In this document: one piece after another, positions 37,573 to 61,711 of the stretch
Numbering within the stretch: the stretch's first letter is position 1
Layout of the letters: each line of letters starts with the position of its first letter
Assembly: GCA_009861545.1 (NCBI GenBank)
Contig: VXME01000076.1
Location: 75,325-139,324 of the forward strand
DNA from: Acidobacteriota bacterium
Lineage (GTDB): Bacteria; Acidobacteriota; Vicinamibacteria; Vicinamibacterales; UBA8438
DNA length: 64,000 nt
Direction of reading: 5' to 3'
Program-made: the position numbers and the translations under genes
The notes under the pieces: generated by a model
Told to the model about the DNA's origin: nothing
Database searches by the model: none
Seen by the model: only the letters and a program-made list of their open reading frames with translations

Positions 37573-39342
37573 ATGCCCGCATCCGACTCGCCGTCGTTCC
37601 GGACCTGGCTGGCGGCGTTCGCGTTCGCCGCCGTCACCGTCGCCGCTTCGTTGCCGGCGCAGGCGCAGGTCGCGCGCATCGATCCGGTCACCGACGCGGA
37701 GCTGCAGGATCCCAGCCCCGACGAGTGGCTCATGTGGCGCCGCACGCTGAACGGCTGGGGCTACAGTCCGCTCGACCAGATCGATCGCGACAACGTCGCC
37801 GACCTCCGCATGGTCTGGTCCCGCGGGTTGGGTCCGGGTCGCCAGCAGGGCACCCCGCTGGTCCGCAACGGCGTGATGTACATGCCGAATCCGCGCGATC
37901 TCATCCAGGCGATCGACGCGGTGACCGGGGATCTGCTGTGGCAGTACCAGCGCGATCGCCCGGACGATCTCGCCGACTACATGATCCCGGGCCTGATCGG
38001 CCACAACCGCAACATCGCCATCTACGACACGCTCCTCTTCGACAGCACCAGCGACGACTACGTGATTGCCCTCGACGCGACCACCGGGGAGGTGGTCTGG
38101 GAGACCGAGGTCCTCGACTACCGGGTGAACCCGGCGAATCAGACCTCCGGTCCCATCGTCGCCGACGGCAAGGTGATCTCGGGGCGGAGCTGCCATCCGC
38201 GCGGCGGGCCGCACGCCTGCGTCATCGTCGCCCACGACGCGCTGACCGGCGAGGAGCTCTGGAGGCGCCGCCTGATTCCGGGACCGGGCGAGTTCGGTGA
38301 CGAGACCTGGGGCGACGTCCCCTTCGAGGAGCGGGGGCACGTCGGCTCCTGGATGGTGCCGAGCTTCGATCCCGAGCTGAACCTCGTCTACCTGGGCACG
38401 TCGGTCACCTCGCCGGCGCCGAAGTTCATGCTCGGCGGGGTCGACAGGACCCACCTCTACCACAACTCGACCCTGGCGCTGAACGCCGACACGGGAGAAA
38501 TTGTCTGGTACTACCAGCACCTGAACGACAGTTGGGACCTCGATCATCCGTTCGAGCGTCTGCTCGTCGACACCCCGGTCCGACCCGACCCGGCCGCGGT
38601 GAGCTGGATCAACCCGCGGCTGCAGCCGGGCGAGGAGCGCCGCGTCCTGACCGGCATTCCGGGCAAGACGGGCGTCGTCTACACCCTCGACCGGGAGACC
38701 GGCGAGTTCCTGTGGGCCACCCCGACCATCACCCAGAACGTCATCAGCGGCATCGACGGGGCGACCGGGGCGGTGTCGGAGAACGCGGAGCTGGTCTTCA
38801 CCGCGCAGGGGCAGGTGGTGCTGGCCTGTCCGCACGCGAGCGGCGGGAAGGACTGGGAGGCCGGTGCCTACAGCCCGCTGACGAACACGATGTACATGCC
38901 GCTGCGGAACGTCTGCGCGCGGATGCGCGCCAGTACCTTCGAGGACGAGGAGGCGAGCCGGCTGTACGCCATCGCGTGGCGCAGCCAGATCGCGCCGGGT
39001 ACCGATCAGGTCGGCGCGGTGCACGCGATCTCCGCCGAGACGGGGGCGACCGCCTGGGTATACGAGCAGCGGGCCGCCACCATGTCGCTGGCGGCGACCG
39101 GCGGCGGGCTGGTGTTCGGGGGCGACGTCAACGGGCGGTTCCGCGCCTTCGACGACCGGACCGGAGAGGTCCTCTGGGAGATCAACCTCGGCTCGTCGGT
39201 CTCCGGGTTCCCCATCACCTACGCCGTCGACGGCCGGCAGTACGTCGCCGTCAGCACGGGGACGCCGCGCTTCATCGACCTGACCCCCGAGCTGCGTCCG
39301 AGCCTCGGCAACAACCTGTTCGTGTTCGCTCTGCCGGAGTGA
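37573..39342 (+). CDS. PQQ-dependent dehydrogenase, methanol/ethanol family (paralogue 1; no vicinal Cys pair)
   Basis: GGAGGAGG RBS and a signal peptide. Has the propeller W-motifs and EWLMWRRTLNGWGYSPLDQI. The active-site region is NDSWDLDHPFE (Asp322-x-Asp324). Confidence 0.9.
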   Translation: MPASDSPSFRTWLAAFAFAAVTVAASLPAQAQVARIDPVTDAELQDPSPDEWLMWRRTLNGWGYSPLDQIDRDNVADLRMVWSRGLGPGRQQGTPLVRNGVMYMPNPRDLIQAIDAVTGDLLWQYQRDRPDDLADYMIPGLIGHNRNIAIYDTLLFDSTSDDYVIALDATTGEVVWETEVLDYRVNPANQTSGPIVADGKVISGRSCHPRGGPHACVIVAHDALTGEELWRRRLIPGPGEFGDETWGDVPFEERGHVGSWMVPSFDPELNLVYLGTSVTSPAPKFMLGGVDRTHLYHNSTLALNADTGEIVWYYQHLNDSWDLDHPFERLLVDTPVRPDPAAVSWINPRLQPGEERRVLTGIPGKTGVVYTLDRETGEFLWATPTITQNVISGIDGATGAVSENAELVFTAQGQVVLACPHASGGKDWEAGAYSPLTNTMYMPLRNVCARMRASTFEDEEASRLYAIAWRSQIAPGTDQVGAVHAISAETGATAWVYEQRAATMSLAATGGGLVFGGDVNGRFRAFDDRTGEVLWEINLGSSVSGFPITYAVDGRQYVAVSTGTPRFIDLTPELRPSLGNNLFVFALPE

Positions 39343-39446
39343 CCGCGGCGGGCGACCGCCGGTCGTCGAGTCGATGTCGACCGGCGTCCCTCGGCCGCCC
39401 GATCGCGGCCCGAAACTGGTATCCACCCGCGTACCGGAGGTTCACC

Positions 39447-40751
39447 ATGACGCACGCAAGCTCGCTGGGACGGTCTCGCACGCTCTTCGTCATCCTCACG
39501 CTGTGCCTGTTCATCGCCATCAGCAACGCGCAGCAGGGACGCCGGGGGATCGGCCCCGACACCCTGCCCGACGAGCCGCGGATCCTGGGCTTCGGCGACC
39601 AGCAGTTCCGTGTCGTCCCCATCAAGGGCTTCTTCCGTCCGTCGGCCGTGGACTTCCTGCCGAATGGCGACATTCTGGTCGCCGAGCGCTCGGGCGGCCT
39701 GCGCATCATCCGCGACGGGGTGCTCGATCCGGAACCCATCCGCGGCATGCCCGAGGTGCTCAACAGCTACGGTGGCCGGCTGGGCCTGTGGGACGTGGCG
39801 GTGCATCCGCGGTTCGCCGAAAACCGGCTGGTCTATTTCACGTACCTGAAGCCCGACCGGAGTGACGACGTGCCGCAGGATGCGGCCGTGTCCCAGGCGC
39901 CCGCGGGAACGTCGGTGCTGGCGCGCGCCCGCTTCGACGGCGCCAACACCCTGACCGACGTCGAGGACATCTTCGTCTCGGACGCCCGGGTCAGCGGCTT
40001 CAGCGTGGCCAGACTGATCTTCGCCCCCGACGGCAGGATCTTCATGTCGATCGGCATGCCGCTGCGCGACCGGGAGCACGGTGGCAGCAATCGCATCGGC
40101 ACGGCAGAGCAGTCCCAGGAACCCGGCAGTCACGCCGGCAAGATTCTGCGCCTCAACGACGACGGGACCGCGCCCGAAGACAATCCCTTCATCGGGGACC
40201 CGGCCTATCGACCGGAGATCTACGCCCTGGGCTTCCGCGATCCGCTGGGCCTGATCATCCATCCCGAGACCGGCGAGCTCTGGGAAGTGGAGCACGGTCC
40301 GCAGGGCGGCGACGAGCTCAACATCGTCAGGCCGGGCCGGAACTACGGCTGGCCGGTCGTTTCGTACGGCCGCGCGTACACGGGAGAGGCCACGGCGGGC
40401 ACGGGCGGGACGGGCCCGGAGCTGCCCGAGCCCTGCGCGCCGGGCATGGAGCAGCCGCTGCTCTATTGGTACCCCGTCATCTCTCCCGGCGGCATGGCCC
40501 TCTATACGGGCGACAGGTTCCCGGCGTGGAGGGGCAGCCTGTTCGTCGGCGGCATGGCCACCACGCAGCTCCAGCGCATCGTCTTCAACCAGCGGGGCCT
40601 GCCGGTGCGTCACATCCCGCTGCTGACCGAGCTCAACCAGCGCATCCGCGATGTCAAGCAGGGGCCGGACGGCCTGCTGTACGTGACGACGGATCACGAG
40701 GCAGGGGCAGTGCTGAGAATCGAGCCGGTCGAAGGCGAAGGGGCAAACTGA
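39447..40751 (+). CDS. PQQ-dependent sugar (glucose/sorbosone) dehydrogenase
   Basis: Start ATG 39447 within ORF 38532..40751. Motifs GDILVAERSGGLRII, GKILRLNDDGTAPEDNPF and HGPQGGDELNIVRPGRNYGWP. Confidence 0.85.
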   Translation: MTHASSLGRSRTLFVILTLCLFIAISNAQQGRRGIGPDTLPDEPRILGFGDQQFRVVPIKGFFRPSAVDFLPNGDILVAERSGGLRIIRDGVLDPEPIRGMPEVLNSYGGRLGLWDVAVHPRFAENRLVYFTYLKPDRSDDVPQDAAVSQAPAGTSVLARARFDGANTLTDVEDIFVSDARVSGFSVARLIFAPDGRIFMSIGMPLRDREHGGSNRIGTAEQSQEPGSHAGKILRLNDDGTAPEDNPFIGDPAYRPEIYALGFRDPLGLIIHPETGELWEVEHGPQGGDELNIVRPGRNYGWPVVSYGRAYTGEATAGTGGTGPELPEPCAPGMEQPLLYWYPVISPGGMALYTGDRFPAWRGSLFVGGMATTQLQRIVFNQRGLPVRHIPLLTELNQRIRDVKQGPDGLLYVTTDHEAGAVLRIEPVEGEGAN

Positions 40752-40752
40752 G

Positions 40753-40778
40753 GGCGGAGCTATCCGATGATCTCCGCC
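40753..40778. terminator. possible bidirectional hairpin between convergent genes
   Basis: GGCGGAG-N12-CTCCGCC, a perfect 7-bp stem. There is no U-tract, so it is weak. Confidence 0.3.
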
Positions 40779-40804
40779 AGGCCCTCGCTTCGAATTCGTG
40801 TTTC

Positions 40805-41794
40805 CTACGGCTCCAGGCTAGCCGTATAGGCCACGATGTTCACGATGTCCTCGAGTGTGAGGTTTTCCACCGCGGCGTCCATCAGGTCCGACCACGCCCC
40901 GTCGCGCACGCCGGTCTGCAGGTCGTAGAGCTGCCGGGCCATGTAGCTCGGCGAGCGGCCGGCCAGCGCCGGCACGGGGCCGAGTCCGCGCAGGTCGGCG
41001 CCGTGACAGGTGGTGCAGGCCACCGAGTTGTCGCCGCCCGTGAGCACGATGTTGCGTCCCCGCCCTACTGCGCCCGACGGCACGTAGGCGATGAAGCCGG
41101 AAGCGTCGTCGCGCAGCTTGGTCCGGGTCAGGTCCTCCGGCGTCTCGACCACGCGCGTGCCGATCGGCTCGGCGCCGCCGCCCTCGACCACCTCGTGGAT
41201 CCACCCCGCGAAGCGCGTCTTCGGCACCGCGTCGGTCTCCACGACGCGGACCCACGGCTTGAAGTCGATCGACGAGAAGTACTCGGCTGCGATCCGCGCC
41301 TCCGCGTCGGTGGTGGCCAGTCCGATCCGCTCCATGAAGGAGGGCGGGCCCATGCGCGGCTCACCCGGCCGGCGCAGACCGTTCCGCCAGTCCGTCATCT
41401 GCTGCACGATGTACTCGTACGGTTGGCCGGCGACGCCGGCGTTCTCCGGCTTGCCCTGGCCGTTCGGCAGATGGCAGTAGCCGCACGCGACGACGCCCTC
41501 GCCGCCGCCGCTCGCCACGACCTCCGGCATCGGCGGATGGGCGTCGGGGTGCCAGTCGGGCGGGCCGTTGTCGATATTGATCGCCGAGCGCGGCATCGAC
41601 ACGCTGGAGCCGGGCACCGTGACGATCTCGTCGGGATCGGGCGTGTCCGCGTTCTCGACCGGCTCGTTGAGCACGTACGCCCAGGGCAGCACGGCGTTCG
41701 CCCCCTCGGCTTCCTGCTGCGCCTGCAGATCCACGCCGGCTGCGAGTCCGGCCGCCGCCAGCACCATCACCCATGCGCTGCTCGACTGTCGCAT
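40805..41794 (-). CDS. di-haem c-type cytochrome
   Basis: GAGGAGGA RBS, a signal peptide, and haem motifs CGYCH and CTTCH. Confidence 0.85.
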   Translation of the reverse strand: MRQSSSAWVMVLAAAGLAAGVDLQAQQEAEGANAVLPWAYVLNEPVENADTPDPDEIVTVPGSSVSMPRSAINIDNGPPDWHPDAHPPMPEVVASGGGEGVVACGYCHLPNGQGKPENAGVAGQPYEYIVQQMTDWRNGLRRPGEPRMGPPSFMERIGLATTDAEARIAAEYFSSIDFKPWVRVVETDAVPKTRFAGWIHEVVEGGGAEPIGTRVVETPEDLTRTKLRDDASGFIAYVPSGAVGRGRNIVLTGGDNSVACTTCHGADLRGLGPVPALAGRSPSYMARQLYDLQTGVRDGAWSDLMDAAVENLTLEDIVNIVAYTASLEP

Positions 41795-42014
41795 CGCGTC
41801 CTCCTCGGGCCTGCGCGCTGCACCACGCGGCTGATTGTGTCCCCACCGAACAGGCCCATCTTACACGCCCGATCAGCGCTGCCGCCGCGACCCGCGAGGC
41901 GTTGCCGATTGAACCGCCGCGCTCGTCGTATTACGATTGACTGCTGCTGCCGGCGCCTGCAACCACCCTGCGCGCCGGCCCGGGAATTCGGCAACATCGT
42001 TGGAGATCAGACCG

Positions 42015-43484
42015 ATGACGCGACTGGTCGCACTGTCTGCCGGCATCTTGATCGCATTGTCGTTCGCGGCCGCTCCAGCCGTCGCGGCCGAAGGGACCCC
42101 CACCTACAACGAGCGCGTCGGGGACATCCTGCTCGACAACTGCGCGAGCTGCCACCGACCGAACCAGGTGGCGCCGATGTCGCTGCTGTCGTACCGCGAC
42201 GCGCGGCCGTGGGCGCGGGCCATCAAGGCGAAGGTCGTCTCGCGCGAGATGCCGCCGTGGTTCGCCGACCCGCGGTTCGGCACGTTCTCCAACGACATCA
42301 GCCTGAGCGACGAGGAGATCGAGACGATCGTCGCGTGGGTCGACGGCGGCGCGCCGCAGGGCGACGGGCCGGCCCCCGAGCCGCCCGATTTCGCGGCGGC
42401 GGGCTGGAGCCATCCCGACGGGCTGGATCCGGACTACGTCATCGAGTTCCCGATCGCGTGGAAGATCGACGCGGAGGGAGAGACCCCGAACTTCAACCTG
42501 TTCACGCCGCTGCCTTTCGACGACGTCATGCGCGTGTCGGCGACCGAGGTGCGGCCCGGCAACTACGCGGTGACCCACCACATCACCACCGGCCTGGTCG
42601 ACCTGCCGCCGGGGACGAAGCTGGGCCGCGGGCCGGCGTGGCCGGGCGGGCCGCTGGTGGACTACGTACCGGTGGAGGATCCGGACGCCGACCCCGAGGA
42701 GACCGACGCGGACGATGACGCGGCCGTGGAGGAGCAGTCCGACGAGGAGCTCGAGGAGCGCCGCCGGGCGCGCGCCGGCTTCGGCCCGTACATCCCGGGC
42801 GTGGGCGCCAGGGTGGTCCGCGACGGCCAGGTCCGCGAGGTGCGCGGCGACCTGTTCGACTACATCATCTGGAACCTGCACTACCAGGCCACCGGCAAGC
42901 CGGAGCGGGCCCGACCGTCCATCGGCGCCTGGTTCGCCAACGACACGGACGGGAAGTACCAGCGCACCCTCTCGTTGCGCGAGTACACCTCCGAGAACGA
43001 GCAGCTCGTGGCGCCGCCTCCGCTCACCGAGGAGGAGCGGCGGGCCGCCAACCCCGACCGGCAGGCGGGCCAGGGGCTGAACCCGCTGCTGGCGCCCATC
43101 CCGCCGCACGATCCGAACTGGACGGTCACCGGAATCGGGGCGTTCCGGAACGACGCCGTCCTGCACAGCCTGTTCCTGCATATGCACGTGCGCGGCAAGG
43201 ACGTGACCTACGTGCTGACCTACCCGGACGGCCGGGAGGAGATCCTGCTCCGGGTGCCGAACTACGCCTTCGACTGGCAGTTCGAGTACGACCTCGTCGA
43301 GCCGATCCGGGTGCCGGCGGGGAGCACGGTGAAGGCCATCGCCCGCTACGACAACTCGCGGGCCAACCGCCTGAATCCGGCTCCGCACAAGGAGGTCTAC
43401 TGGTCGGAGCAGAGCTGGGACGACATGTTCCTCGCCAACGTCAAGTACACGCTGGAGGACGAGGACACGGCGGGCGACAACTGA
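42015..43484 (+). CDS. secreted haem-binding protein with Cu2-monooxygenase-C-like beta-sandwich domain
   Basis: Start ATG 42015 with a signal peptide. CASCH haem motif followed by SREMPPWFADP. The C-terminal LHMHVRGKDVTY...YAFDWQ pattern resembles the copper type II ascorbate-dependent monooxygenase C domain. Confidence 0.7.
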   Translation: MTRLVALSAGILIALSFAAAPAVAAEGTPTYNERVGDILLDNCASCHRPNQVAPMSLLSYRDARPWARAIKAKVVSREMPPWFADPRFGTFSNDISLSDEEIETIVAWVDGGAPQGDGPAPEPPDFAAAGWSHPDGLDPDYVIEFPIAWKIDAEGETPNFNLFTPLPFDDVMRVSATEVRPGNYAVTHHITTGLVDLPPGTKLGRGPAWPGGPLVDYVPVEDPDADPEETDADDDAAVEEQSDEELEERRRARAGFGPYIPGVGARVVRDGQVREVRGDLFDYIIWNLHYQATGKPERARPSIGAWFANDTDGKYQRTLSLREYTSENEQLVAPPPLTEEERRAANPDRQAGQGLNPLLAPIPPHDPNWTVTGIGAFRNDAVLHSLFLHMHVRGKDVTYVLTYPDGREEILLRVPNYAFDWQFEYDLVEPIRVPAGSTVKAIARYDNSRANRLNPAPHKEVYWSEQSWDDMFLANVKYTLEDEDTAGDN

Positions 43485-43574
43485 CGCGCGGTCGCGCCGC
43501 GTGATCCGGGAAGGGCCGGGCGTGCGTCGCGCCGGCCCTTCTTCTTCCCCGCCTGCAGCCTGGAGCATCGATAC

Positions 43575-44051
43575 ATGTCGTACGGGAAGACAGCGGTCCT
43601 TCTGCTGGCCGCGGCCGTCTGGCTGGCGCCCGCGTCCACCCGGGGCCAGCGGGTGGCCGCGACCGGCGGCGCGCCCGCGGTCGAGATCGTGCACACGGTC
43701 GGTTGTGTGGAGCGCCGCGCGGGGGAGGCCGAGTGGTGGCTGGCGCGCGCCGCCGAGCCGACGGTGACCGAGGCCGGCGTGTTCGACGAAGACGAGGTGA
43801 ACGAGGCGCGCGCGCAGGCTCTCGGTACGCACGTGTTCCACCTGGTGGGCGTGGCCGATTTTCTCGGCGCCGAGGCCCTGCTGCGCTCGTTCGACCGATC
43901 GTCCTTCACGACCCCGGATCAGGTGAACGCCACCGGCGAGCTGCGCGCGGGCCGCACGGTCCTGATCAAGGGGCTGTTGATCGAGTCGGACGATGCCGCG
44001 CGGATCAACCTGTTGTCCGTCGTGGGGTTGGCCGACACTTGTGGCGAGTAG
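43575..44051 (+). CDS. secreted protein of unknown function (Cys-flanked domain shared with 528..1313)
   Basis: Has a signal peptide. VGC...WWL...GTHVFHL...IKGLLI...RINLLSVVGLADTC aligns with the C-terminus of the first cytochrome. Confidence 0.65.
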   Translation: MSYGKTAVLLLAAAVWLAPASTRGQRVAATGGAPAVEIVHTVGCVERRAGEAEWWLARAAEPTVTEAGVFDEDEVNEARAQALGTHVFHLVGVADFLGAEALLRSFDRSSFTTPDQVNATGELRAGRTVLIKGLLIESDDAARINLLSVVGLADTCGE

Positions 44052-44064
44052 GGAGTCGCTTGTG

Positions 44065-44775
44065 ATGATCAGGCTCGTTGCATGCACCGTGCTCCTCGTC
44101 GCGGCGGCGGCGCCGCTGGGGGCGCAGACCACCGCGCAGATCGAGGCGGAGCCGATCGTGAAGCTGCGGGAGGGCGAGACCCTGACCCCCGACCAGTGCC
44201 TGTCCGAGCAGGAGCTGGAGCTGATCGACGCGCTGAACGCGCTGCGGCGGCCGACGGTCGGCGTGGAGCGGGACGGGGAGGGCGACGATCCGGCGCCGTT
44301 CGACCCGCACTACCTGGTCGGCGCCTGGAACATCGAAGGGGTGCTGCCGGAATCGCCGTTGGCTCCGTCCGGCTACTTCGTCGGCACCGAGACGGTCCGC
44401 CACGTCGGCGGGTGCACCTACGCGAGCACCGTCGAGGCGTCGGTGGACGATTTCCCGGTGACCATCGAGGCCCTCATGGTCTACGACCGGCGCGCGAAGT
44501 ACCTGGTGCGCATCGAGGACGACAGCCGCGGCTTCCGCCTCGTGAAGCTCGGCCGGGTCGGCGGCGACCCGGGCGGTTACTTCTCCCACCACTGGGAGGC
44601 GGCGCCGCTCACGCGCGAGGAGTCCGAGATCCGGTTGCGGGGCCGTACCTACATGACCTCGCCGTTCGCCTACCAGGTGCGGACCCGCATCTCGATAGAC
44701 GGCGGTCCGTTCATCAACTTCGGCTCCGTCTGGTGGGAGCGCGCCGAGGCCGAGCAGCAGGAGTCTGCGCCGTAG
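44065..44775 (+). CDS. secreted hypothetical protein (lipocalin/DUF1579-like by pattern)
   Basis: GGGAG RBS, GTG 44062 or ATG 44065, and signal MIRLVACTVLLVAAAAPLGA. Good codon bias. Confidence 0.6.
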   Translation: MIRLVACTVLLVAAAAPLGAQTTAQIEAEPIVKLREGETLTPDQCLSEQELELIDALNALRRPTVGVERDGEGDDPAPFDPHYLVGAWNIEGVLPESPLAPSGYFVGTETVRHVGGCTYASTVEASVDDFPVTIEALMVYDRRAKYLVRIEDDSRGFRLVKLGRVGGDPGGYFSHHWEAAPLTREESEIRLRGRTYMTSPFAYQVRTRISIDGGPFINFGSVWWERAEAEQQESAP

Positions 44776-45395: not shown

Positions 45396-47096
45396 ATGAC
45401 TCGTCCCGTCGCGATTGTCACCCTCGCCGCCCTCGTCGTGCTCGCCGTCCTGGCGCAGGCCGCACCGGCGGCCGCCCAGGCCCCCGCCGTCAGTTCCGTC
45501 ACCGACGCGGTGCTGGCGGACCCGCCGCCGGAGAGCTGGCTGAACTGGCGCCGGACGCAGGACGGCTGGGGGTACAGCCCCCTGGATCGGATCACGCGCG
45601 AGAACGTCGGCAATCTCCGCATGGTCTGGTCGTGGGCGATGGAGCCGGGTTCGCAGCAGACCACGCCGATCATCCACGAGGGGGTGATGTACCTGGCGAG
45701 TCCCGGCAACATCGTGCAGGCGCTCGACGCCGCCACCGGCGACATGCTGTGGGAGTACCGCCGGCAGTTCCCCACCGCGCGGGGCCGCGGGCGTCCCAAC
45801 CGCAACATCGCGATCTACCAGGACAAGATCATCCTGAACACCGCCGACGCGAACATCGTGGCCCTGGATGCGCGGACCGGCGAGATCGTGTGGGAGGCGG
45901 AGGTCGCCGACTCGTCGAAGGGCTTCTTCTTCAGCAGCGGCGCGCTGGTGGTGGAGGGCGTGGTGGTCTCCGGGATGGCCGGCTGCCTGCGGTTCTGGGA
46001 GGAGGGCTGCTTCATCACCGGGCACGACGCCGAGACCGGGCGCGAGCTGTGGCGGACGTCTACCGTGGCGCGGCCGGGCGAGCCGGGGGGCGATACCTGG
46101 GGCGACCTGCCGATGATGTTCCGCGGCGGCGGCGACGCCTGGATCGCCGGCAGCTACGATGCGGATCTCGGCCTCACCTACTGGGGCGTGGCGCAGGCCA
46201 AGCCCTGGGCCCAGGTGAGCCGCCGCACCGACGCGGACGCGCTCTACACCAGCTCGACCCTCGCGCTCGATCCCGCGACCGGCGAGATGCGCTGGTACTT
46301 CCAGCACCTGCCGGGAGAGTCCCACGACATGGACGAGACCTTCGAGCGCATCCTCGTCGAGGTCGACGGACGGCCGTCGGTCTTCACGATGGGCAAGCTC
46401 GGCATCCTGTGGCAGCTCGACCGCGAGACCGGCGGGTTCATCAACGCCACCGACCTCGGCTACCAGAACATCGTCGACATCGAGCCCGAGACCGGACGCA
46501 TGTCGTTCCGCCCCGGCATGATGCCGGTCCTGGACGAGGAGCTGTCGTTCTGCCCGAGCCACTCGGGCCTCAAGAGCTGGCGGGCTATGGCCTACAGCCC
46601 CGAGACCGAGGCGTTCTACATTCCCCTGACGCTCAACTGCCAGCGGACCATATACAGCGAGGTCGAGTTCCGCGAGGGCGGCGGCGGCGCCGGGATGGTG
46701 TTCCGCGAGAACTTTCTGCACCCGGACAGCGATGGGAACATGGGCGAGTTCGTCGCGATGCACGTCAGCGGCGAGATCCTCTGGTCGCATCGCAAGCGGT
46801 CGCCCTACATCTCGGCGGCGCTGACGACGGCCGGCGGCCTGACGTTCGTCGGCACCTACGACCGGCGGGCGTACGCTTACGACATCGCGACCGGCGAAGA
46901 GCTCTGGCAGACGCGCCTGCCGACCGCGGTGCAGGGGTTCCCCGTCACCTACAGCGTGGATGGCCGGCAGTACGTCGCGATCGGCACCGGCACGGGGGGC
47001 GGGAGCTGGACGACGATGCCGGCGGAACTGATCCCCGACGTACGGCGTCCGAACGCCGGCAACGGCCTGTTCGTGTTCGCACTGCCCGTGAAGTGA
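45396..47096 (+). CDS. PQQ-dependent dehydrogenase, methanol/ethanol family (paralogue 2; no vicinal Cys pair)
   Basis: AAGGGAG RBS, start ATG 45396 and a signal peptide. SWLNWRRTQDGWGYSPLDRI is present. The active-site region is GESHDMDETFE (Asp311-x-Asp313). Confidence 0.9.
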   Translation: MTRPVAIVTLAALVVLAVLAQAAPAAAQAPAVSSVTDAVLADPPPESWLNWRRTQDGWGYSPLDRITRENVGNLRMVWSWAMEPGSQQTTPIIHEGVMYLASPGNIVQALDAATGDMLWEYRRQFPTARGRGRPNRNIAIYQDKIILNTADANIVALDARTGEIVWEAEVADSSKGFFFSSGALVVEGVVVSGMAGCLRFWEEGCFITGHDAETGRELWRTSTVARPGEPGGDTWGDLPMMFRGGGDAWIAGSYDADLGLTYWGVAQAKPWAQVSRRTDADALYTSSTLALDPATGEMRWYFQHLPGESHDMDETFERILVEVDGRPSVFTMGKLGILWQLDRETGGFINATDLGYQNIVDIEPETGRMSFRPGMMPVLDEELSFCPSHSGLKSWRAMAYSPETEAFYIPLTLNCQRTIYSEVEFREGGGGAGMVFRENFLHPDSDGNMGEFVAMHVSGEILWSHRKRSPYISAALTTAGGLTFVGTYDRRAYAYDIATGEELWQTRLPTAVQGFPVTYSVDGRQYVAIGTGTGGGSWTTMPAELIPDVRRPNAGNGLFVFALPVK

Positions 47097-48477: not shown

Positions 48478-48480
48478 TCC

Positions 48481-51358: not shown

Positions 51359-51979
51359 TCAGCGCTCTTGCGGGACGAAGATGTCGCGGGCCGGCATTTC
51401 GACCGCCGGCAGCGTCGTGGCGTTCATCGCCTCGTCGGCCGCGATGAGACCGTTCTCTGCGAGGATCCAGGCGACGAGGCCGTAGACTTGGTCGGCCTCC
51501 AGCGTACCGGGCGCGTTCGACGGCATCGCGCGGCGGATGTAGTCGAACAGCGTCGTGGCGTAGGGCCAGTAGTTGCCGACCGAGTACGGCACGTCGGGAC
51601 CGTCGCCGCGCCATTCCTCGTAGCGCGGCCCGAACGGCGGCGTGGTCTCCGGCGTGTATCCGACCAGCCGATCCGCGATGCCGCCCTCGCCGGACTGTCC
51701 GTGGCAGACGGCGCACTGTCGCGCGTAGACCGGGGCGCCGCTCGCCGCCGTTCCCTCGCCCTCGGGCAGGCCGGTGCCGTCGGGCATGACGTCGATGTCC
51801 CAGGCGGCGATCTCCGCCGCGGTCGCGGCGCGGCCGAAGCCGAACGACTCGGGGATCGACTGCGCACCGTCACCGCCGGCGTTCTGTGCCGCGGCCGGCC
51901 CCGCAAGCAGGAAACCGGCGGCGCTCAGCGCCAGCGCGGCGACGACCAGCGATGTCGTCAACGTCCCCTTCTGCGTCAC
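51359..51979 (-). CDS. sorB: c-type cytochrome subunit of sulfite dehydrogenase (SorB-like)
   Basis: GTG 51979 overlaps the sorA stop (GTGA). Has a signal peptide and the haem motif CAVCH. Confidence 0.75.
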   Translation of the reverse strand: MTQKGTLTTSLVVAALALSAAGFLLAGPAAAQNAGGDGAQSIPESFGFGRAATAAEIAAWDIDVMPDGTGLPEGEGTAASGAPVYARQCAVCHGQSGEGGIADRLVGYTPETTPPFGPRYEEWRGDGPDVPYSVGNYWPYATTLFDYIRRAMPSNAPGTLEADQVYGLVAWILAENGLIAADEAMNATTLPAVEMPARDIFVPQER

Positions 51980-53184
51980 GCGTCCCACGGCGGCTCCTCC
52001 CGGTAGTAGACCTGCCCGTTCGGCTGGATGCGCCACGCGGTGATCGGGTTGAGGTGATACCCGCGCGCGCGGCGGCCGCGAACGGCGCGCAGCGCGGCCC
52101 GCGTCGGCTGGACGTAGCCGGTGTCGTCGGTGGCCCGGCTCATTATCTCGGTCCCGGAGCCATCCCAGCGCCACAGGTGCCGGAAGCGGGTGTGCGCCTG
52201 CCGCAGGACCGGCTCCTGCAGGCTCGCCTCCTGCCAGGTGCGGCCACCGTCGGTGCTGACGTCCACTTTCGCGATGGTGCCCCGCCCCGACCACGCGACG
52301 CCGCGGAGCTCGATCCAGCCCGGCTCGACCACGTCCGGCCAGGCCGGCGAGGTGATGATCGAACGGGCGTCGAAGACGAAGCTGAACTGCCGCGCCGTGC
52401 CGTCGGCCAGCGGGTCGGTGTACTTCGAGGTCTCCTCGCGCGTCATGAACGGGGCGTCGGCCAGCTCGATGCGGCGCAGCCACTTGACGTTGGAGTTGCC
52501 CTCCCAGCCCGGCAGCAGGAGCCGCGCCGGGTAGCCCTGCGACGGCCGCAGCGCCTCGCCGTTCTGCGCGTAGGCGACCATCGCGTCGTCCCAGGCCTTC
52601 TCCATGGGGACGCTGCGTGTCATCACCGCGGCGTCCTGTCCCTCGGCCAGGAACCACGTCGCGTCGGGGCTCGCGCCGACCTCGCGGAACAGCGTGGCGA
52701 GCGACACGCCGGTCCACTCGGTGGTGGAGGTCATGCCGCAGACCAGCTCCGGCTTCGTTTCCGGTCCGGCGCCCGTGGGATAGTTGCCGGAGCACTCCAG
52801 GAAGCAGATGCGCGACGTGGCGGGGAAGCGCTTCAACTCGGCGAGCGTGAGGATCGTCGGCCGCTCGACCAGCCCGTGGATCAGGAGCCGGTAGTCGTCG
52901 GGGTCGACCGCCGGCACGCCGCCGTGGTGCCGCTCGAAGTGGAGGTCCGACGGCGTGATCATGCCGTGGAGATCCTGCAGCGGCGTCCGCGACGAGAGGC
53001 CGGTGACCCTGCCGCGCGCCAGCGGCTCGTGGGGCGACCGCGCCCCGAGCGCGCTCGCCGGCCCCCCCGGGGACTTCGTGGTGTCCTGCGCGTGGACGCG
53101 CTGGCCGACCGGCGCAAGCGTGGCGGCGCCGATGGCGCCCGCCGCGCCGGTCAGGATATCCCTGCGGGTGACTGTTCTCGCCAT
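51976..53184 (-). CDS. sorA: molybdopterin sulfite oxidase/dehydrogenase catalytic subunit (SorA-like)
   Basis: GGAGGGA RBS and Tat leader MARTVTRRDILTG. The molybdopterin Cys is in FLECSGN, and there is a C-terminal dimerisation domain. Confidence 0.9.
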   Translation of the reverse strand: MARTVTRRDILTGAAGAIGAATLAPVGQRVHAQDTTKSPGGPASALGARSPHEPLARGRVTGLSSRTPLQDLHGMITPSDLHFERHHGGVPAVDPDDYRLLIHGLVERPTILTLAELKRFPATSRICFLECSGNYPTGAGPETKPELVCGMTSTTEWTGVSLATLFREVGASPDATWFLAEGQDAAVMTRSVPMEKAWDDAMVAYAQNGEALRPSQGYPARLLLPGWEGNSNVKWLRRIELADAPFMTREETSKYTDPLADGTARQFSFVFDARSIITSPAWPDVVEPGWIELRGVAWSGRGTIAKVDVSTDGGRTWQEASLQEPVLRQAHTRFRHLWRWDGSGTEIMSRATDDTGYVQPTRAALRAVRGRRARGYHLNPITAWRIQPNGQVYYREEPPWDA

Positions 53185-53355
53185 GGGTCCTCCCTCCGTG
53201 AGACGCGCGCGGGGCGCCGATGATCTCCTCCGATTCCGGAAACCGCTGCTCGGCGTGCTTCGAGGAAGATCATCCTGCCGTCCGCGACGACGTCGAATAT
53301 CCTGTTGGTTGTCTCCGTATACTACCCGTTGCGCGAATCCGCGTGAACCGGCACG

Positions 53356-53976
53356 TTGCCCCTGTACCGCGAGCGCCTGCTTCGAGCCGCGGGTGCGGGC
53401 GGCGTTCGAGCGTGCGCCGGCAATGCACGCGGACGGCGAATCCGCGTGACGGAGGCGGCGAACGGAGTGGCCGAGGTGGCGAGCCGGGGAGCGGCGGGTG
53501 GGGAAGTACCGGCCGCGGTGCTGCGCCGGGTGTGCGGGCTGCTCGACGAATGCGCCATTCCCTTCCAGTTGACGGGCGACGTCGCCGCCGCCGCGTACGG
53601 CGCCCCGCGCCCGATCCGCAGCGTGGAGTTGTTCATCGCGGCCGAGCACGTGCCCGCGCTGCTGCGGCGGGCGGAGGAGCACGTCGTCGACTATCCCTGG
53701 CGTCGGCGCGACGACGCCTGGGACCGCGTCGCCCTGTCGCTGTCCTTCGACGGGGTGACTATCGACGTCTGCATCGCGGAAGCGGCCCGGTTACGGGAGG
53801 CGGCGACGGGAGCGTGGCGGGAGGCGGCCATCGACCCCGCGGTGTCCGTGACCGTGAAGGTCCGGGGCGTGGAGGCGCCGGTGATGCCGCGCAGGCAGCT
53901 TCTGGATCAGAAGCGCCGGCTCGACCGCGAGGTCGACCGGCAGGATCTCCGGGACCTCGCCCGGGAGGATCCGTGA
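53356..53976 (+). CDS. hypothetical protein, degenerate nucleotidyltransferase-fold-like
   Basis: LTGDVAAAAYGAPRPIRSVELFI resembles a GG..G..R.T.DIDL NTase motif, but the acidic residues are replaced. The start is uncertain (ATG 53356 or GTG 53446). Confidence 0.4.
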   Translation: MPLYRERLLRAAGAGGVRACAGNARGRRIRVTEAANGVAEVASRGAAGGEVPAAVLRRVCGLLDECAIPFQLTGDVAAAAYGAPRPIRSVELFIAAEHVPALLRRAEEHVVDYPWRRRDDAWDRVALSLSFDGVTIDVCIAEAARLREAATGAWREAAIDPAVSVTVKVRGVEAPVMPRRQLLDQKRRLDREVDRQDLRDLAREDP

Positions 53977-54738: not shown

Positions 54739-54758
54739 GGGGAGCCGGCTGCGGCCCG

Positions 54759-55532: not shown

Positions 55533-55535
55533 ACC

Positions 55536-57935
55536 ATGGGTGACCTTCACCGCCGGCATCCGCCCCAGGACATCTACCCGCGCGAGCCCTGGCGCCTGGT
55601 GGAGACGCACTTCGACGAGCGCTACCTGGCCGCCGCCGAGTCGCTGTTCGCCACCGCGAACGGCTATCTGGGGATGCGCGGCACGTGCGACGAGGGGCAG
55701 CCGGTGGTGCACAACGGCACCTACGTCAACGGCTTCCACGAGACGTGGCCCATCGTCTACGGCGAGGAGGCCTACGGTTTCGCGAAGCTCGGCCAGACCA
55801 TCGTCGACGTGCCGGACGCGAAGATCATCCGCCTGTACGTCGACGACGAGCCGTTCTTCCTGCCGACCGCGACGCTGGAGGGTTTCGAGCGGGCGCTCGA
55901 CTTGCAGGCCGGCACGCTGGATCGGGAGCTCGTCTGGGCGCATTCCTCGGGTCAGCGCGTCTCCATTCGGTCGCGGCGCCTCGTCTCGCTGGAACACCGG
56001 CATCTGGCCGCGATCGAGTACGAGGTCACGCTGCTGGCGAGCGACGCACCCGTCGTCATCGTGTCGGAAGTCGTCGACAGCGAACGTTCCGCGCGTCCCA
56101 ACGGCGACCCGCGCACCCGGCAGTTCGGTTGCGAGGTGCTCGATACGGAGGTGACCCGCACCGCAGAGGCGCGCGTGGTCCGCGGCTACGTCACCAGGTC
56201 GAGCGGGATGACGCTGTCCTGCGCCATCGATCACGAGGTGCGGACCGACTGCTCGTTCAACGTGAAGGCATCGGCCGACGAGGCGGCGGGCCGCGTGGTC
56301 TATTCCATCGACGGCACGGTAGGTACCCGCATCCGGCTCATCAAGTACATCACCTACCACTCGTCGCGCCGCCGCCAGGTCGAGGAGCTCTGCCAGCGTG
56401 CCGAGCGGGTCCTCGATCGGGCGGTGGAGAAGGGGTTTCAGGACCTGCTCGACAGCCAGAAACGCTTTCTCGACGACTTCTGGAACTGCAGCGACGTGGA
56501 GGTGCGCGACAACCCGGAGTGGCAGCAGACGATCCGGTTCAACCTGTTTCAAATGTGCCAGGCGACGGCGCGCGCCGAAGGCGTGGGCGTGCCGGCCAAG
56601 GGCCTGACCGGGCCCGGATACGAGGGGCACTATTTCTGGGACACCGAGATCTACGTGCTGCCGTTCCTCACGTATACCAAGCCGCGGATCGCGCAGAACC
56701 TGCTTCGTCAGCGGCACGCCTTCCTGGACGAGGCCCGCGCACGCGCGCGGGAGGTCAACCAGCGCGGCGCGCTCTTCCCCTGGCGCACCATCAACGGCAA
56801 CGAGGCCTCCGCGTACTACGCGGCGGGGACGGCGCAGTACCACATCAACGCGGACATCGTGTACGCGCTTCGCAAGTATGTGGACCTCACCGGCGACCGG
56901 GAATTCCTCAAGGAGGTCGGCGCGGAGATCCTGGTCGAGACCGCGCGCCTGTGGGTCGACCTCGGCTTCTTCGGCCGCCACGACGGCAAGTTCCGGATCA
57001 ACGGGGTGACCGGGCCGGACGAGTACAACACCGTCGTCAACAACAACCTGTACACCAACCTGATGGCGCGCGAGAACCTCTGGTACGCCGTGGAGACCAT
57101 CCGGGCGCTGGCGGAGAGCGATCCGCAACGATTCGGGTCGCTGGTCCGCGACACCGGACTTCGCCAGGAGGAGATCGATGACTGGCGGCAGGCGGCCGAC
57201 CGGATGTACCTGCCGTACGACGAACGCGACGGCGTGCACCTGCAGGACGACTCCTTCAAGGACAAGCAGGACTGGGACTTCGCCAGCACGCCCGCGGAGA
57301 AGTACCCGCTGTTGCTGCACTACCACCCGCTCGTGATCTACCGCTATCGCGTCGTCAAGCAGGCGGACGTCGTGCTGGCGATGTTCCTCCTCGGCCACGA
57401 GTTCTCGCACGACCAGAAGCGGCGCAACTTCGTGTACTACGACCGGCTCACGACGCGCGATTCGTCGCTGTCGTGCTCCATCGAGAGCATCATCGCGGCC
57501 GAGGTGGGGGAGATGGACAAGGCGTTCAGCTACTCCATCGACGCGGGGCTGATGGACCTGGCGGACGTGGCCGGAAACGTGCAGGACGGATGCCACATCG
57601 CGTCGATGGGCGGCTTCTGGATGACGCTCATCTACGGTTTCGCGGGGATGCGCGACACCGACGGCCGCCTCAGCTTCGCGCCCAAGGTGCCGGAGAAGCT
57701 CGGCGGCCTGCGTTTCCCGCTGGAGATCCGCGGGCAGCGCCTGGAGGTGGATCTGACCCCGACGTCCGCGACCTACGTGGTGCGGGGGGAGGCCGCGCTG
57801 CGCATCGCGCACGAGGACGAGCTGGTCGAACTGGAGCCGGACGTTCCGGTCACCCGCGCGGTCCGCCGACGCCCGCAGGTCGACGGCGAGGCGTCGACCG
57901 TGACGGCTTCGTCCGGTGCGGGGACGGTTACGTAG
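55536..57935 (+). CDS. glycoside hydrolase family 65 disaccharide phosphorylase (trehalose/maltose/kojibiose type)
   Basis: N-terminal ESLFATANGYLGMRG, then the catalytic region GYEGHYFWDTEIY and (alpha/alpha)6 barrel motifs. Confidence 0.9.
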   Translation: MGDLHRRHPPQDIYPREPWRLVETHFDERYLAAAESLFATANGYLGMRGTCDEGQPVVHNGTYVNGFHETWPIVYGEEAYGFAKLGQTIVDVPDAKIIRLYVDDEPFFLPTATLEGFERALDLQAGTLDRELVWAHSSGQRVSIRSRRLVSLEHRHLAAIEYEVTLLASDAPVVIVSEVVDSERSARPNGDPRTRQFGCEVLDTEVTRTAEARVVRGYVTRSSGMTLSCAIDHEVRTDCSFNVKASADEAAGRVVYSIDGTVGTRIRLIKYITYHSSRRRQVEELCQRAERVLDRAVEKGFQDLLDSQKRFLDDFWNCSDVEVRDNPEWQQTIRFNLFQMCQATARAEGVGVPAKGLTGPGYEGHYFWDTEIYVLPFLTYTKPRIAQNLLRQRHAFLDEARARAREVNQRGALFPWRTINGNEASAYYAAGTAQYHINADIVYALRKYVDLTGDREFLKEVGAEILVETARLWVDLGFFGRHDGKFRINGVTGPDEYNTVVNNNLYTNLMARENLWYAVETIRALAESDPQRFGSLVRDTGLRQEEIDDWRQAADRMYLPYDERDGVHLQDDSFKDKQDWDFASTPAEKYPLLLHYHPLVIYRYRVVKQADVVLAMFLLGHEFSHDQKRRNFVYYDRLTTRDSSLSCSIESIIAAEVGEMDKAFSYSIDAGLMDLADVAGNVQDGCHIASMGGFWMTLIYGFAGMRDTDGRLSFAPKVPEKLGGLRFPLEIRGQRLEVDLTPTSATYVVRGEAALRIAHEDELVELEPDVPVTRAVRRRPQVDGEASTVTASSGAGTVT

Positions 57936-58022
57936 GTCGCCGAACCATCGCAGGCGGTACCGACAACCCGCCTCGGAGCTCGCGCGCCCTCTGCCTGACA
58001 GGAGCAGACGTTCCGAAAGGCG

Positions 58023-58775: not shown

Positions 58776-58926
58776 GCTTGATCTCCTGGGCAGGCGGCCC
58801 GTCTCTTCACTTGTACCACACCCGCGGGACCCGCGGTGCGGCCATGCCGCGCGGGGCGGCCGTTGTGCCACGCCGGAGCCTCTCGCGCGGCGTCGAGCGG
58901 ACCGGCCGGCCTGACGTCAGTTGGGT

Positions 58927-59868: not shown

Positions 59869-60085
59869 CGTATGCGAACGCGCGTCGAGGGGAGGGAATC
59901 GGGGAGACTGGATCGGATCGGCGGGGCGGGTTCCGGGAGCCGGACGCGTCTGGCGCGCCCGGCTCCCGGCGGTGTCCGTGTCCGTTTCGCTCTCGCCGGG
60001 GCCGGCGCCGTCCGCGGCGGCGCCCGTTCCTGCGTTAGCGTCCTGCTCTTCGTCGTCGTCTGCGCGGATCCCGCGGCGCAGGTCC

Positions 60086-61711
60086 CTACTCGGCGAGGCC
60101 GAACGTGAAGACGACGTTGCCCGCCGCGATCGAGACGTACTGCTCGCCGTCGACCGCGTAGCTGATGGGCGCCGAGTGGACGCGGGCGCCCACCGTCATG
60201 TACCAGAGCTCCTCGCCGCTGACCGCGTCGATGGCGAAGAAGTAGCCGTCGACGGTGCCGCCGAAGACGATGTCGCCGGCGGTGGACATCAGTCCCGAGG
60301 TGGACCGCGGCGCGATGGGGTACTCCCATTGGACGTCGCCCGTCGCCGGATTGATGGCGCGAACCGCGCTGTGGTAGTTGTCGATCGGCCCGGCGCTCTC
60401 GCCGCCGCCCCCGAGGTACTGCTCGCCTTCGACGTACTCCTCCTCGCGGATGAAGAAGATCTGCTCGCCGTCGAACGCGTTGACGTAGAGCAGGCCGGTG
60501 CGCGGGCTGAAGGTGGGCGACCACCAGTTGGTGCCGCCGCCGATGGTCGGCGAGACCAGGGTGCCTTCGACCGACGGCTCCATGTTCGGCACGCGGATCG
60601 GGCGGCCGTTCTCGTCGAGCCCTTCCGCCCAGGTCTGCAGGGCGTAGGGCTTGCCGACCAGGAACTCGCCGGTCTCGCGGTCGAGCGTGTAGTAGAAGGC
60701 GTTGCGGTTGGCCCACAGCATCGCCTTGCGCATCTCGCCCTCGTACAAGATGTCGGCGAGGATCGGCACCTGGATCGCGTCCCAGTCGTGGATGTCGTGC
60801 GGCGTGAACTGGAAGTACCACTCCAGGTTGCCGCCGTCGCCGTTCAGGGCGAGCACCGAGTCGGAGTAGAGGTTGTCGCCCAGGCGCACCTCGCCGTTCC
60901 AGTCGGGGCCGGGATTGCCGGTGCCCCAGTAGATGAGGTCGAGGTCGGGATCGTAGGCGCCGGTGATCCAGGTCGGCGAGCCGCCGGTCCGCCACGACTC
61001 GCCGAGCCAAGTCTGGTTCCCCGGCTCGTCCGGCCCCGGGATGGTGTAGGTGCGCCAGTTGCGCACGCCGCTCGCCGGGTCGTAGGAATCGAGGAAGCCG
61101 CGGATGCCGTACTCGCCGCCCGCGATGCCCGTGATCACCTGGTCCTTGACGATGAGCGGCGCCGCCGTCTTGCTGTAGCCGCTCGTGTGCGGGGCGGTCT
61201 CGGTGTCCCAGACGACGTTGCCGGTGCGCGCGTCGATGGCGACGATGTGCGCGTCGAGCGTGCTCATGAAGAGCGTCTCGCCCAGGATGGCCACGCCCCG
61301 GTTGTTGCGCCCGCAGCAGATGCGCAGATCGTCCGGCAGATCGTGGTTGTAGCGCCAGTACTGGCGGCCGGTGGCGGCGTCGAGGGCCACGACGTTGCTC
61401 GGGGCCTCGGTGACGAACATGACCCCGTCGACGACGAGCGGCGTGGTCTCGGCCCGGTCGATTTCCGGGATCTGGTAGGCCCACTTCAACTCGAGATTGC
61501 CGACGTTGCGGTTGTGGATCTGGTCGAGGCGGCTATACCGCTTGCTGTCGAGCGTCCCCGAGTACATGAGCCAGTTCTCGGGCTCGTCCGCGGCGTTCAG
61601 CAGGCGCTCCCAGGTGACCGGGCGCAACGAGGGTCCCGCGTCTTCCTGGGCCGTCGCCGCCGCCGGCGCCACCAGCGCGATCAAGGCCGATACGGTCGCA
61701 AGTCGTTTCAT
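60086..61711 (-). CDS. PQQ-dependent alcohol dehydrogenase, canonical quinoprotein type (paralogue 3)
   Basis: Start ATG 61711 follows GGGAGAG, with a signal peptide. Has the vicinal Cys pair RICCGRNNRG (Cys132-Cys133). The active-site region is PHDIHDWDAIQ (Asp309-x-Asp311). Confidence 0.9.
   Translation of the reverse strand: MKRLATVSALIALVAPAAATAQEDAGPSLRPVTWERLLNAADEPENWLMYSGTLDSKRYSRLDQIHNRNVGNLELKWAYQIPEIDRAETTPLVVDGVMFVTEAPSNVVALDAATGRQYWRYNHDLPDDLRICCGRNNRGVAILGETLFMSTLDAHIVAIDARTGNVVWDTETAPHTSGYSKTAAPLIVKDQVITGIAGGEYGIRGFLDSYDPASGVRNWRTYTIPGPDEPGNQTWLGESWRTGGSPTWITGAYDPDLDLIYWGTGNPGPDWNGEVRLGDNLYSDSVLALNGDGGNLEWYFQFTPHDIHDWDAIQVPILADILYEGEMRKAMLWANRNAFYYTLDRETGEFLVGKPYALQTWAEGLDENGRPIRVPNMEPSVEGTLVSPTIGGGTNWWSPTFSPRTGLLYVNAFDGEQIFFIREEEYVEGEQYLGGGGESAGPIDNYHSAVRAINPATGDVQWEYPIAPRSTSGLMSTAGDIVFGGTVDGYFFAIDAVSGEELWYMTVGARVHSAPISYAVDGEQYVSIAAGNVVFTFGLAE

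Follow-up and report, generated by a model that had tools for sequence, protein, structure and literature searches.

Three propeller dehydrogenases of a sponge-associated Vicinamibacterales genome share an Asp-x-Asp motif and probably build their metal sites in three different ways

Background

Do three dehydrogenases of the same fold, encoded within one stretch of bacterial DNA, all use a lanthanide as their active-site metal? The stretch analysed here (hereafter the window) comprises 64 kb of contig VXME01000076.1 (positions 75,325 to 139,324; assembly GCA_009861545.1), and the enzymes in question are three pyrroloquinoline quinone (PQQ) β-propeller dehydrogenases that we number P1, P2 and P3 in window order. 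A preliminary description of this DNA had noticed that in each of them an Asp follows two residues after the presumed catalytic Asp (the Asp-x-Asp or D-x-D motif, whose second residue we call the +2 Asp), and had proposed that the organism may run an all-lanthanide set of alcohol/aldehyde dehydrogenases, each of them wired to nearby c-type cytochromes. Our analysis points to a more differentiated picture, which we consider probable: the three metal sites would be built in three different ways, that of P3 being the canonical one, and P1 and P2 belonging to a lineage without the vicinal disulfide in which the metal may be either a lanthanide or Ca.

The window is part of the genome of a sponge-associated member of the Vicinamibacterales (Acidobacteriota). 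Proteins identical to those of the window are encoded on the sponge-metagenome scaffolds ENGE20-1 (SAMN12347671 and SAMN12347672) and also in a metagenome-assembled genome (MAG) labelled Acidobacteria at NCBI (GCA_009836255.1). The 78 genome loci that we fetched with P1 all belong to Acidobacteriota MAGs, mostly labelled Vicinamibacterales, and several Vicinamibacterales genomes among them carry multiple P1-like paralogues.

The three propeller genes and the register of the Asp-x-Asp motif

The genes, with protein lengths in amino acids (aa), and the segments that carry the motif are the following.

37573-39342, plus strand: P1, secreted eight-bladed PQQ dehydrogenase, 589 aa, 4CVB/DepA/sorbose-dehydrogenase type (PF01011)
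45396-47096, plus strand: P2, secreted 566-aa PQQ dehydrogenase of the lineage without Cys-Cys (PF01011)
60086-61711, minus strand: P3, secreted 541-aa PQQ dehydrogenase of the methanol/ethanol family (TIGR03075, PedH match)
38536-38544, plus strand: Asp322-Leu-Asp324 of P1, within SWDLDHP, aligned to 4CVB, DepA and PedH; WDLD in 120 of 120 homologues
46326-46334, plus strand: Asp311-Met-Asp313 of P2, within SHDMDET; both Asp invariant in 40 homologues
60779-60787, minus strand: Asp309-Trp-Asp311 of P3, within HDIHDWDA, aligned to WDFD of PedH; D.D in 120 of 120 homologues

All three are secreted eight-bladed propellers with signal peptides that match the Pfam family PF01011, P1 and P2 being 44% identical to each other and each of them 34-35% identical to P3. 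They separate when compared with the NCBIfam model TIGR03075 (PQQ-dependent dehydrogenase, methanol/ethanol family; curated cut-off 480.05 bits), which P3 passes with 550.0 bits and under which P2 (384.8 bits) and P1 (345.7 bits) remain, the latter two thus being relatives of the family and not members of it. Among the solved structures the best match of P3 is the lanthanide enzyme PedH (6zcv/6zcw, E 5.5e-109, 39% identity), that of P1 is 4cvb (E 9.5e-131), followed by 9m2c, 7wmd and 4mh1, and that of P2 is 22vi (E 2.9e-110), followed by 4mh1 and 4cvb. The AlphaFold2 model of P1 (mean predicted local distance difference test score 82.5) gave Foldseek template modelling scores of 0.88/0.92 to 9m2c and 4cvb, against 0.78-0.83 to PedH. 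The start ATG of P2 is preceded by a GAAGGGAG ribosome-binding site. At NCBI, MAG proteins identical to P3 are named 'PQQ-dependent dehydrogenase, methanol/ethanol family', and the homologues of P2 only 'PQQ-binding-like beta-propeller repeat protein'.

Translation reproduced exactly the motif positions of the preliminary description (DLD in P1, DMD in P2 and, on the minus strand, DWD in P3), which had left the strand of P3 unstated, and bore out its observation that a vicinal Cys-Cys is present in P3 and absent from P1 and P2. The PQQ-stacking Trp, the PQQ-binding Lys/Arg and the catalytic Asp are conserved in the three proteins. In an alignment of 79 sequences spanning all three clades both Asp columns are invariant, and we therefore conclude that the D-x-D motif is not due to chance.

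Aligning P1-P3 with PedH, the Ca-type alcohol dehydrogenase ADH IIB, 4CVB, DepA (7WMD) and 22VI in MAFFT L-INS-i yielded the following pairs of catalytic Asp and +2 residue: D323/D325 in PedH, D295/T297 in ADH IIB, D297/E299 in 4CVB, D304/E306 in DepA, D322/D324 in P1, D311/D313 in P2 and D309/D311 in P3. By phmmer, P3 aligned unambiguously to PedH (TPHDIHDWDAIQ against TPHDGWDFDGVN), and a larger MAFFT alignment of 111 sequences put the +2 Asp in the same register with the PedH lanthanide ligand, as did the alignment of 79 sequences, the pairwise phmmer alignments of P1 and of P2 with PedH and with ADH IIB, that of P2 with P3, and the hhalign profile comparisons of P2 with P3 (gapless) and of P1 with P2. 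The second Asp thus lies in register with the lanthanide ligand of PedH in P1 (D324), P2 (D313) and P3 (D311), and the displacement that would have undone the original proposal was not found. The +2 Asp of P1 and P2 is likely to be a metal ligand.

P3 as a canonical lanthanide-type enzyme

The residues that complete the active site of P3, and the cytochrome gene adjoining it, are given below; conservation refers to a set of 120 homologues with 73-100% identity to P3.

61313-61318, minus strand: vicinal Cys132-Cys133 of P3, within RICCGR; RICCGRNNRG in 120 of 120 homologues
61112-61114, minus strand: Glu200 of P3 (GGEYG), canonical Glu ligand, aligned to GGEFG of PedH; GG-E-[YF]-G in 120 of 120
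60914-60916, minus strand: Asn266 of P3 (GTGNPGP), canonical Asn ligand, aligned to GTGNPAP of PedH; GTGNPGP in 120 of 120
61714-62517, minus strand: dihaem c-type cytochrome, 267 aa (CGRCH and CSTCH; PF13442), on the strand of P3 and 2 nt upstream of it

P3 has the whole canonical set, namely the Glu, the Asn, two Asp residues and the vicinal Cys-Cys. It shares with the PedH/ExaF/XoxF type (PedH of Pseudomonas putida KT2440, 6ZCV/6ZCW) the eight-bladed propeller, the Cys-Cys, the Glu of GGE[FY]G, the Asn of GTGNP, the catalytic and +2 Asp, the signal peptide and an adjacent cytochrome c gene. With the Ca-dependent enzymes ADH IIB (1KV9) and ExaA (1FLG) it shares the fold, the Cys-Cys, the Glu, the Asn and the catalytic Asp, but at +2 ADH IIB has Thr instead of the Asp of P3, and it carries a C-terminal haem domain that is absent from P3. 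P3 nonetheless differs from PedH in several respects: the two proteins are 39% identical, a His precedes the catalytic Asp in P3 (HDWD against WDFD), the partner cytochrome is a dihaem protein of 267 aa with weak similarity to PedF/MoxG, and P3 belongs to an Acidobacteria-specific clade that comes near to, but stays under, the cut-off of the NCBIfam model TIGR04528 ('acido-empty-quinoprotein group A', 650 bits).

The cytochrome scores above the cut-off of TIGR02603 (105 against 68), its matches to PedF and MoxG are weak, and the cytochrome-P3 pair recurs, with a 4-nt overlap, beside a 73%-identical P3 homologue from another sample (locus L084). Like exaA-exaB and xoxF-xoxG, the two genes form an operon-like pair, and the 267-aa cytochrome is the probable electron acceptor of P3. 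Judging from its residues and its gene partner, we hold it quite likely that P3 is an alcohol dehydrogenase of the lanthanide type with a cytochrome c of its own as partner. In such an enzyme PQQ would be held beside the vicinal disulfide, and Glu200, Asn266, Asp309 and the additional Asp311 would serve as metal ligands, the same set as in XoxF, ExaF and PedH; the enzyme would most likely use a light lanthanide, oxidise small alcohols or aldehydes and deliver the electrons to the dihaem cytochrome c whose gene lies 2 nt upstream.

P1 and P2 in a lineage without the canonical Glu and Asn

P1 and P2 are of the 4CVB/DepA/sorbose-dehydrogenase type, as indicated by their nearest relatives in sequence and fold, by the absence of the Cys-Cys and by a Cys...Cys loop in the place of GGE[FY]G. 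Their best solved relatives (E values from 1e-131 to 1e-98) are the PQQ alcohol dehydrogenase of Pseudogluconobacter saccharoketogenes (4CVB/4CVC), DepA of Devosia (7WMD/7WMK), the sorbose dehydrogenase of Ketogulonicigenium (4MH1), 9M2C and 22VI, with which they share a Type I architecture without vicinal disulfide, the catalytic Asp, the PQQ-stacking Trp, the PQQ-binding Lys and a C-terminus in ...FVFALP. Throughout the 4CVB/DepA/sorbose-dehydrogenase lineage the canonical Glu is missing, and Gly, Val or Gln stands in the place of the Asn. P1 and P2 differ from the solved members, to which they are 37-41% identical, in having Asp rather than Glu at +2 (the solved enzymes reading W-D-x-E-C/S); the solved enzymes come from Alphaproteobacteria, whereas P1 and P2 come from an Acidobacteriota genome.

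The distribution of the motif was surveyed by searching P2 against one representative of each 50%-identity cluster, and the resulting 103 hits of nearly full length were combined with P1-P3 and five solved structures in the 111-sequence alignment mentioned above. D-x-D is present in 92 of these sequences and D-x-E in five, which are the solved 4CVB, 7WMD and 22VI and two library representatives clustering with them. A few relatives read N-x-D or G-x-D, with Asn or Gly in the place of the catalytic Asp and the +2 Asp retained, so that, of the two Asp, the one at +2 is the better conserved in the wider family. Tabulating the +2 residue against other active-site columns by regular expression, in search of covariation across the family, gave counts too noisy to be used. 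In a neighbour-joining tree of the family, P3 groups with PedH and ADH IIB (the enzymes with Cys-Cys, Glu and Asn), P1 shares a group with the D-x-E enzymes, themselves nested within D-x-D sequences, P2 falls in a clade of its own, and proteins with an N-terminal cytochrome c fusion, also D-x-D, make up a further group. Many of the P2 relatives among the family representatives are extended at the N-terminus by about 150-190 aa, where a single CxxCH around residue 50 marks them as such cytochrome c fusions, and nearly all of these are D-x-D.

The following residues distinguish the two sites.

38194-38196, plus strand: His208 of P1, immediately following the first Cys of the disulfide loop (motif SC-H-PRGG), in the column of DepA Gln191
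46194-46196, plus strand: Gln267 of P2, at the canonical Asn (GTGN) column; hhalign pairs AQAKP-W with GNPGPDW
45999-46004, plus strand: Glu202-Glu203 of P2, acidic pair on the loop between Cys197 and Cys205, lying 4-5 residues beyond the column of the canonical Glu

P1 is devoid of the canonical Glu and Asn (its Glu region has Pro or His, its Asn column Val) and keeps the 4CVB-like set of Asp322, Asp324 and Asp427. Its site is one of 4CVB type in which the Glu is replaced by Asp. The enzyme of 4CVB is said to have three of its four Ca ligands unlike those of other quinoproteins and to use Asp333 as catalytic base, a residue label that we take to denote the Asp of the W-D pair. A further difference from the 4CVB type, which has Gln there, lies at residue 208: by regular-expression count the column holds Asp in 114 of 120 P1 orthologues, including those that are 93-96% identical, and His in the P1 of the window. 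The exact sequence of the window P1 protein was found on contigs from two samples, so that His208 is not an assembly error. The residue of DepA in this column, Gln191, is a substrate contact in a docking study (PMC12566506).

P2 combines features of both types. At the column of the canonical Asn it has Gln267, and Gln is found there in 41 of 41 aligned sequences of the P2 clade (117 of 120 by regular-expression count). The column of the canonical Glu is occupied by Leu198 and is variable, and the acidic pair Glu202-Glu203 that follows on the same loop is conserved as Asp or Glu at both positions in all 41 homologues ([DE][DE] in 112 of 120), making it a candidate for a replacement metal ligand. 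Asp247, which precedes the PQQ-stacking Trp, is conserved in the P2 clade, and Ser394 replaces the Asp that 4CVB and P1 have in GG[RK]DW. Because Gln267 takes the place of the Asn, and the acidic pair lies close to that of the Glu, the site of P2 could reach a lanthanide-like coordination number.

Lanthanide or calcium in P1 and P2

What became of the all-lanthanide set is hence twofold. D-x-D is in register in all three proteins and P3 is a convincing lanthanide-type enzyme, but P1 and P2 lack the canonical Glu and Asn, and since the +2 Asp rule has been validated in XoxF, ExaF and PedH, where these two ligands are also present, we treat the all-lanthanide set as a published prediction and not as a conclusion. 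We put the chance that P1 and P2 use a lanthanide somewhat below even, and somewhat higher for P2 than for P1. The label of alcohol/aldehyde dehydrogenases is open to doubt in the case of P1 and P2: those of their relatives that have been characterised act on sugars, on deoxynivalenol and on further bulky secondary alcohols. These relatives have open active sites.

The published prediction is that of Voutsinos, Banfield and McClelland (2025, ISME J, PMC11996626), who surveyed ocean PQQ dehydrogenases by the D-x-D motif and described a third clade, akin to the sorbose dehydrogenases. All members of this clade carry D-x-D; they are found chiefly in Acidobacteria and Gammaproteobacteria, a single genome having many of the genes, and are predicted to be lanthanide-dependent, biochemistry being still needed according to these authors. 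Their 4CVB-based model puts both Asp near the metal, within interaction distance, and marine Acidobacteria with up to 70 motif-bearing genes are reported in the same work. P1 and P2 fit this clade by description only (D-x-D, kinship with 4CVB, an Acidobacteria host and multiple paralogues per genome), and whereas the published clade comes from the free-living Tara fraction, P1 and P2 come from a sponge-associated MAG and are split in two clades with different ligand sets.

Could all three enzymes then depend on lanthanides, with P1 and P2 binding the ion through non-canonical coordination spheres? We regard this as possible, though less likely than not. It would account for a +2 Asp that is in register and invariant in the three clades and, in the wider family, outlasts the catalytic Asp; it agrees with the model of PMC11996626 and the dozens of such genes in marine Acidobacteria; it is in line with the invariant Gln and acidic pair of the P2 clade; and the fourth active-site carboxylate that most P1 orthologues have where 4CVB has Gln would suit a trivalent ion. 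Several facts speak against it, apart from the missing Glu and Asn ligands alongside which the +2 rule was validated. The P1 of the window has His and not Asp at 208, no lanthanide-uptake genes are present within the window, and the nearest characterised relatives of P1 were crystallised or assayed with Ca: the 4CVB structure holds Ca-bound PQQ, and DepA and the Ketogulonicigenium alcohol dehydrogenases were active in assays with 1 mM Ca. The solved relatives for which Ca was used already have a carboxylate, Glu, at +2, so that a +2 carboxylate alone does not separate lanthanide from Ca enzymes in this lineage, of which it is a general feature and very probably a metal ligand. Moreover, a 2026 preprint (bioRxiv 10.64898/2026.07.14.738520) predicts from computation that two-Asp sites without the Glu prefer Ca, and that coordination geometry predicts the metal better than a sequence motif does; and the membrane glucose dehydrogenase of E. 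coli has D-x-D, the characterised enzymes of its kind complexing Ca, Mg, Zn and Sr (PMC11996626).

The same evidence on Ca use and on the missing ligands leads to another reading, in which P1 and P2 are Ca-dependent or metal-promiscuous sugar/polyol dehydrogenases, the +2 carboxylate having replaced the lost Glu and Asn, and P3 alone is a lanthanide enzyme. We regard it as possible while stopping short of calling it probable. P1 stands in one clade with 4CVB, DepA and 22vi, with the D-x-E subgroup nested among D-x-D sequences, and seawater offers about 1e-2 M Ca against about 1e-11 M lanthanides. On the other hand, the literature search returned no biochemically characterised D-x-D member of the 4CVB lineage, and no deoxynivalenol or polyvinyl alcohol dehydrogenase tested with lanthanides, so that Ca is no better shown than a lanthanide for enzymes like P1 and P2. 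Subclades divide sharply into those with Asp and those with Glu, a hint that the two differ in function; additional oxygen ligands are conserved in the P2 clade; and the published modelling favours lanthanides.

Some results weigh against the picture of three differently built sites as we have drawn it. PMC11996626 treats D-x-D as sufficient for lanthanide binding, and if this is right our caution on P1 and P2 is excessive. Direct alignments of P1 with P3 are shifted, by two residues through gaps in hhalign, or are broken and ambiguous in phmmer; the shift probably arises because P3 reads H-D-W-D, its Trp pairing with the W-D of P1, and we treat it as an artefact because a D-x-D-x-x-F-E-R anchor ties P1 to P2 and the comparison of P2 with P3 is gapless. 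The supply of the cofactor raises a further point, as the 64-kb window contains no pqq biosynthesis, TonB-receptor or lanmodulin genes, and P3 scores 520.9 bits against TIGR04528 (P2 302.8 and P1 261.4). This model is one for Acidobacteria that lack PQQ synthesis. With the generic NCBI name of the P2 homologues, these observations would be compatible with at least one of the three being a cofactor-less or non-catalytic 'empty quinoprotein' in a host unable to make PQQ, which we nevertheless regard as very improbable. All three proteins are under the cut-off of that model, they retain the residues that stack, bind and act on PQQ, they are strongly conserved (73-95% identity across many genomes), and P3 is paired with a cytochrome c; the literature describes TonB-dependent import of PQQ in organisms that do not produce it, and one window is silent on the rest of the genome.

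If the lanthanide side of the argument is followed to its end, P1 and P2 would represent types of true lanthanide enzymes with coordination spheres unlike any solved lanthanide site, and the D-x-E enzymes (4CVB, DepA) would be a derived Ca offshoot. This is a conjecture that we entertain with some reserve. In such a case the metal of P2 would be held by two Asp, Gln267 and the acidic pair on the disulfide-closed loop, and that of the P1 orthologues by up to four Asp without any Glu or Asn. Lanthanide biochemistry would then extend from small alcohols to the oxidation of sugars and polyols, in a sponge symbiont living at picomolar lanthanide. Rare-earth metals would in this way matter to Acidobacteria that are abundant in the sea and in sponges and have these genes in large numbers, and the new lanthanide-binding architectures would be of interest for metal separation. 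The idea of lanthanide-dependent sugar oxidation was published in 2025 for marine Acidobacteria on the same motif evidence. What the present analysis adds are three highly conserved test cases within one genome (a canonical site, a hybrid site containing Gln and a 4CVB-like site) and the caution that the D-x-D rule is not validated in a lineage without the canonical Glu and Asn.

Cytochromes and gene neighbourhoods

The proposal that each enzyme is wired to nearby c-type cytochromes holds firmly for P3 alone, whose cytochrome gene lies 2 nt away in a conserved pair; the neighbourhoods of P1 and P2 are not conserved. Two genes following P1 are of interest here.

40805-41794, minus strand: dihaem cytochrome c, 329 aa (two CxxCH), 1.4 kb downstream of P1 and convergent with it
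39447-40751, plus strand: six-bladed PQQ aldose-sugar dehydrogenase, Asd/YliI-like (PF07995), directly downstream of P1

No neighbour of P1 recurs consistently across the 78 P1 orthologue loci, and the 329-aa cytochrome is absent from the neighbourhoods of all of them, so a link of this cytochrome with P1 is possible but unsupported. We also considered a cytochrome partner shared between the dehydrogenases and rejected it, the P1-side cytochrome having no similarity to that of P3 or to the one in the gene cluster of P2 orthologues. The six-bladed enzyme scores 112 against TIGR03606, below its cut-off, and matches 7cdy (E 1.5e-57) and 2g8s (E 4.5e-55) in the PDB; lanthanides are bound by many six-bladed PQQ enzymes of bacteria, according to a 2026 preprint.

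Upstream of P1 (33943-37467) there are a divergent YVTN beta-propeller and then genes for an ABC-2 type ATPase and two permeases. The best NCBIfam match of the propeller is the 'PQQ-dependent catabolism-associated beta-propeller' TIGR03866, with 96.3 bits against a cut-off of 287.3, and the ATPase reaches 126.3 bits against the 302.25 of TIGR03864, models of the DrrA type fitting it better. A lanthanide-uptake system like PedA1A2BC was rejected for this group of genes, given scores far under the cut-offs and the absence of the genes beside the 78 P1 orthologues.

The nearest haem protein to P2 is a monohaem protein of 489 aa encoded 1.9 kb upstream, and no cytochrome is found downstream. This secreted protein (42015-43484, plus strand) has CASCH at residue 43, the His-rich segments HHITTG and HMHVRGKD and a very acidic linker, and is followed by genes for secreted proteins of 158 aa (43575-44051) and 236 aa (44065-44775); none of the three has a Pfam or NCBIfam match. 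In other Vicinamibacterales an 82%-identical P2 orthologue heads a different cluster (loci L086-L088, 6001-13300) comprising an NHL-repeat protein, a second PQQ propeller of 661 aa, a 350-aa cytochrome c and a DUF6152 protein, and a 61%-identical homologue sits after a PF04199 cyclase gene (locus L085, 4933-7704). In more distant homologues of P2 (P0452 and P0454, about 905 aa) a PF04199 cyclase domain is part of the same polypeptide.

Other genes of the window

Scans of composition and of tRNA genes for mobile or foreign DNA in the window gave nothing relevant. The G+C content falls to 0.62-0.66 at 18-22 kb of the window. A run of large ATPase/nuclease genes (8907-10649, 15087-18743, 21660-24857 and 26055-28900) looks like a DNA-repair or defence island, with an AAA_15/AAA_21 protein, a helicase with an RNase_H_2 domain, an SbcC/Rad50-like protein and a NurA-domain protein beside a 717-aa protein without any match. 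A planctomycete-type pair at 3196-7175 (plus strand) consists of a DUF1592/1588/1585/1587/1595 protein with an N-terminal cytochrome c domain and a DUF1552 (HXXSHH) protein.

Between P2 and P3, a gene for a glycoside hydrolase of family 65 (55533-57935, plus strand; maltose, trehalose or kojibiose phosphorylase type) would fit a role of the region in sugar metabolism, and 51976-53790 (minus strand) codes for a SoxC-type sulfite dehydrogenase (TIGR04555, 489 against 420 bits) in an open frame of 604 aa with about 225 residues before the matched domain. Ankyrin-repeat proteins are encoded at 1324-3180 (minus strand), 11214-12848 (plus strand) and 29002-30495 (minus strand); proteins of this kind are a hallmark of sponge symbionts, which fits the sponge origin of the identical contigs.

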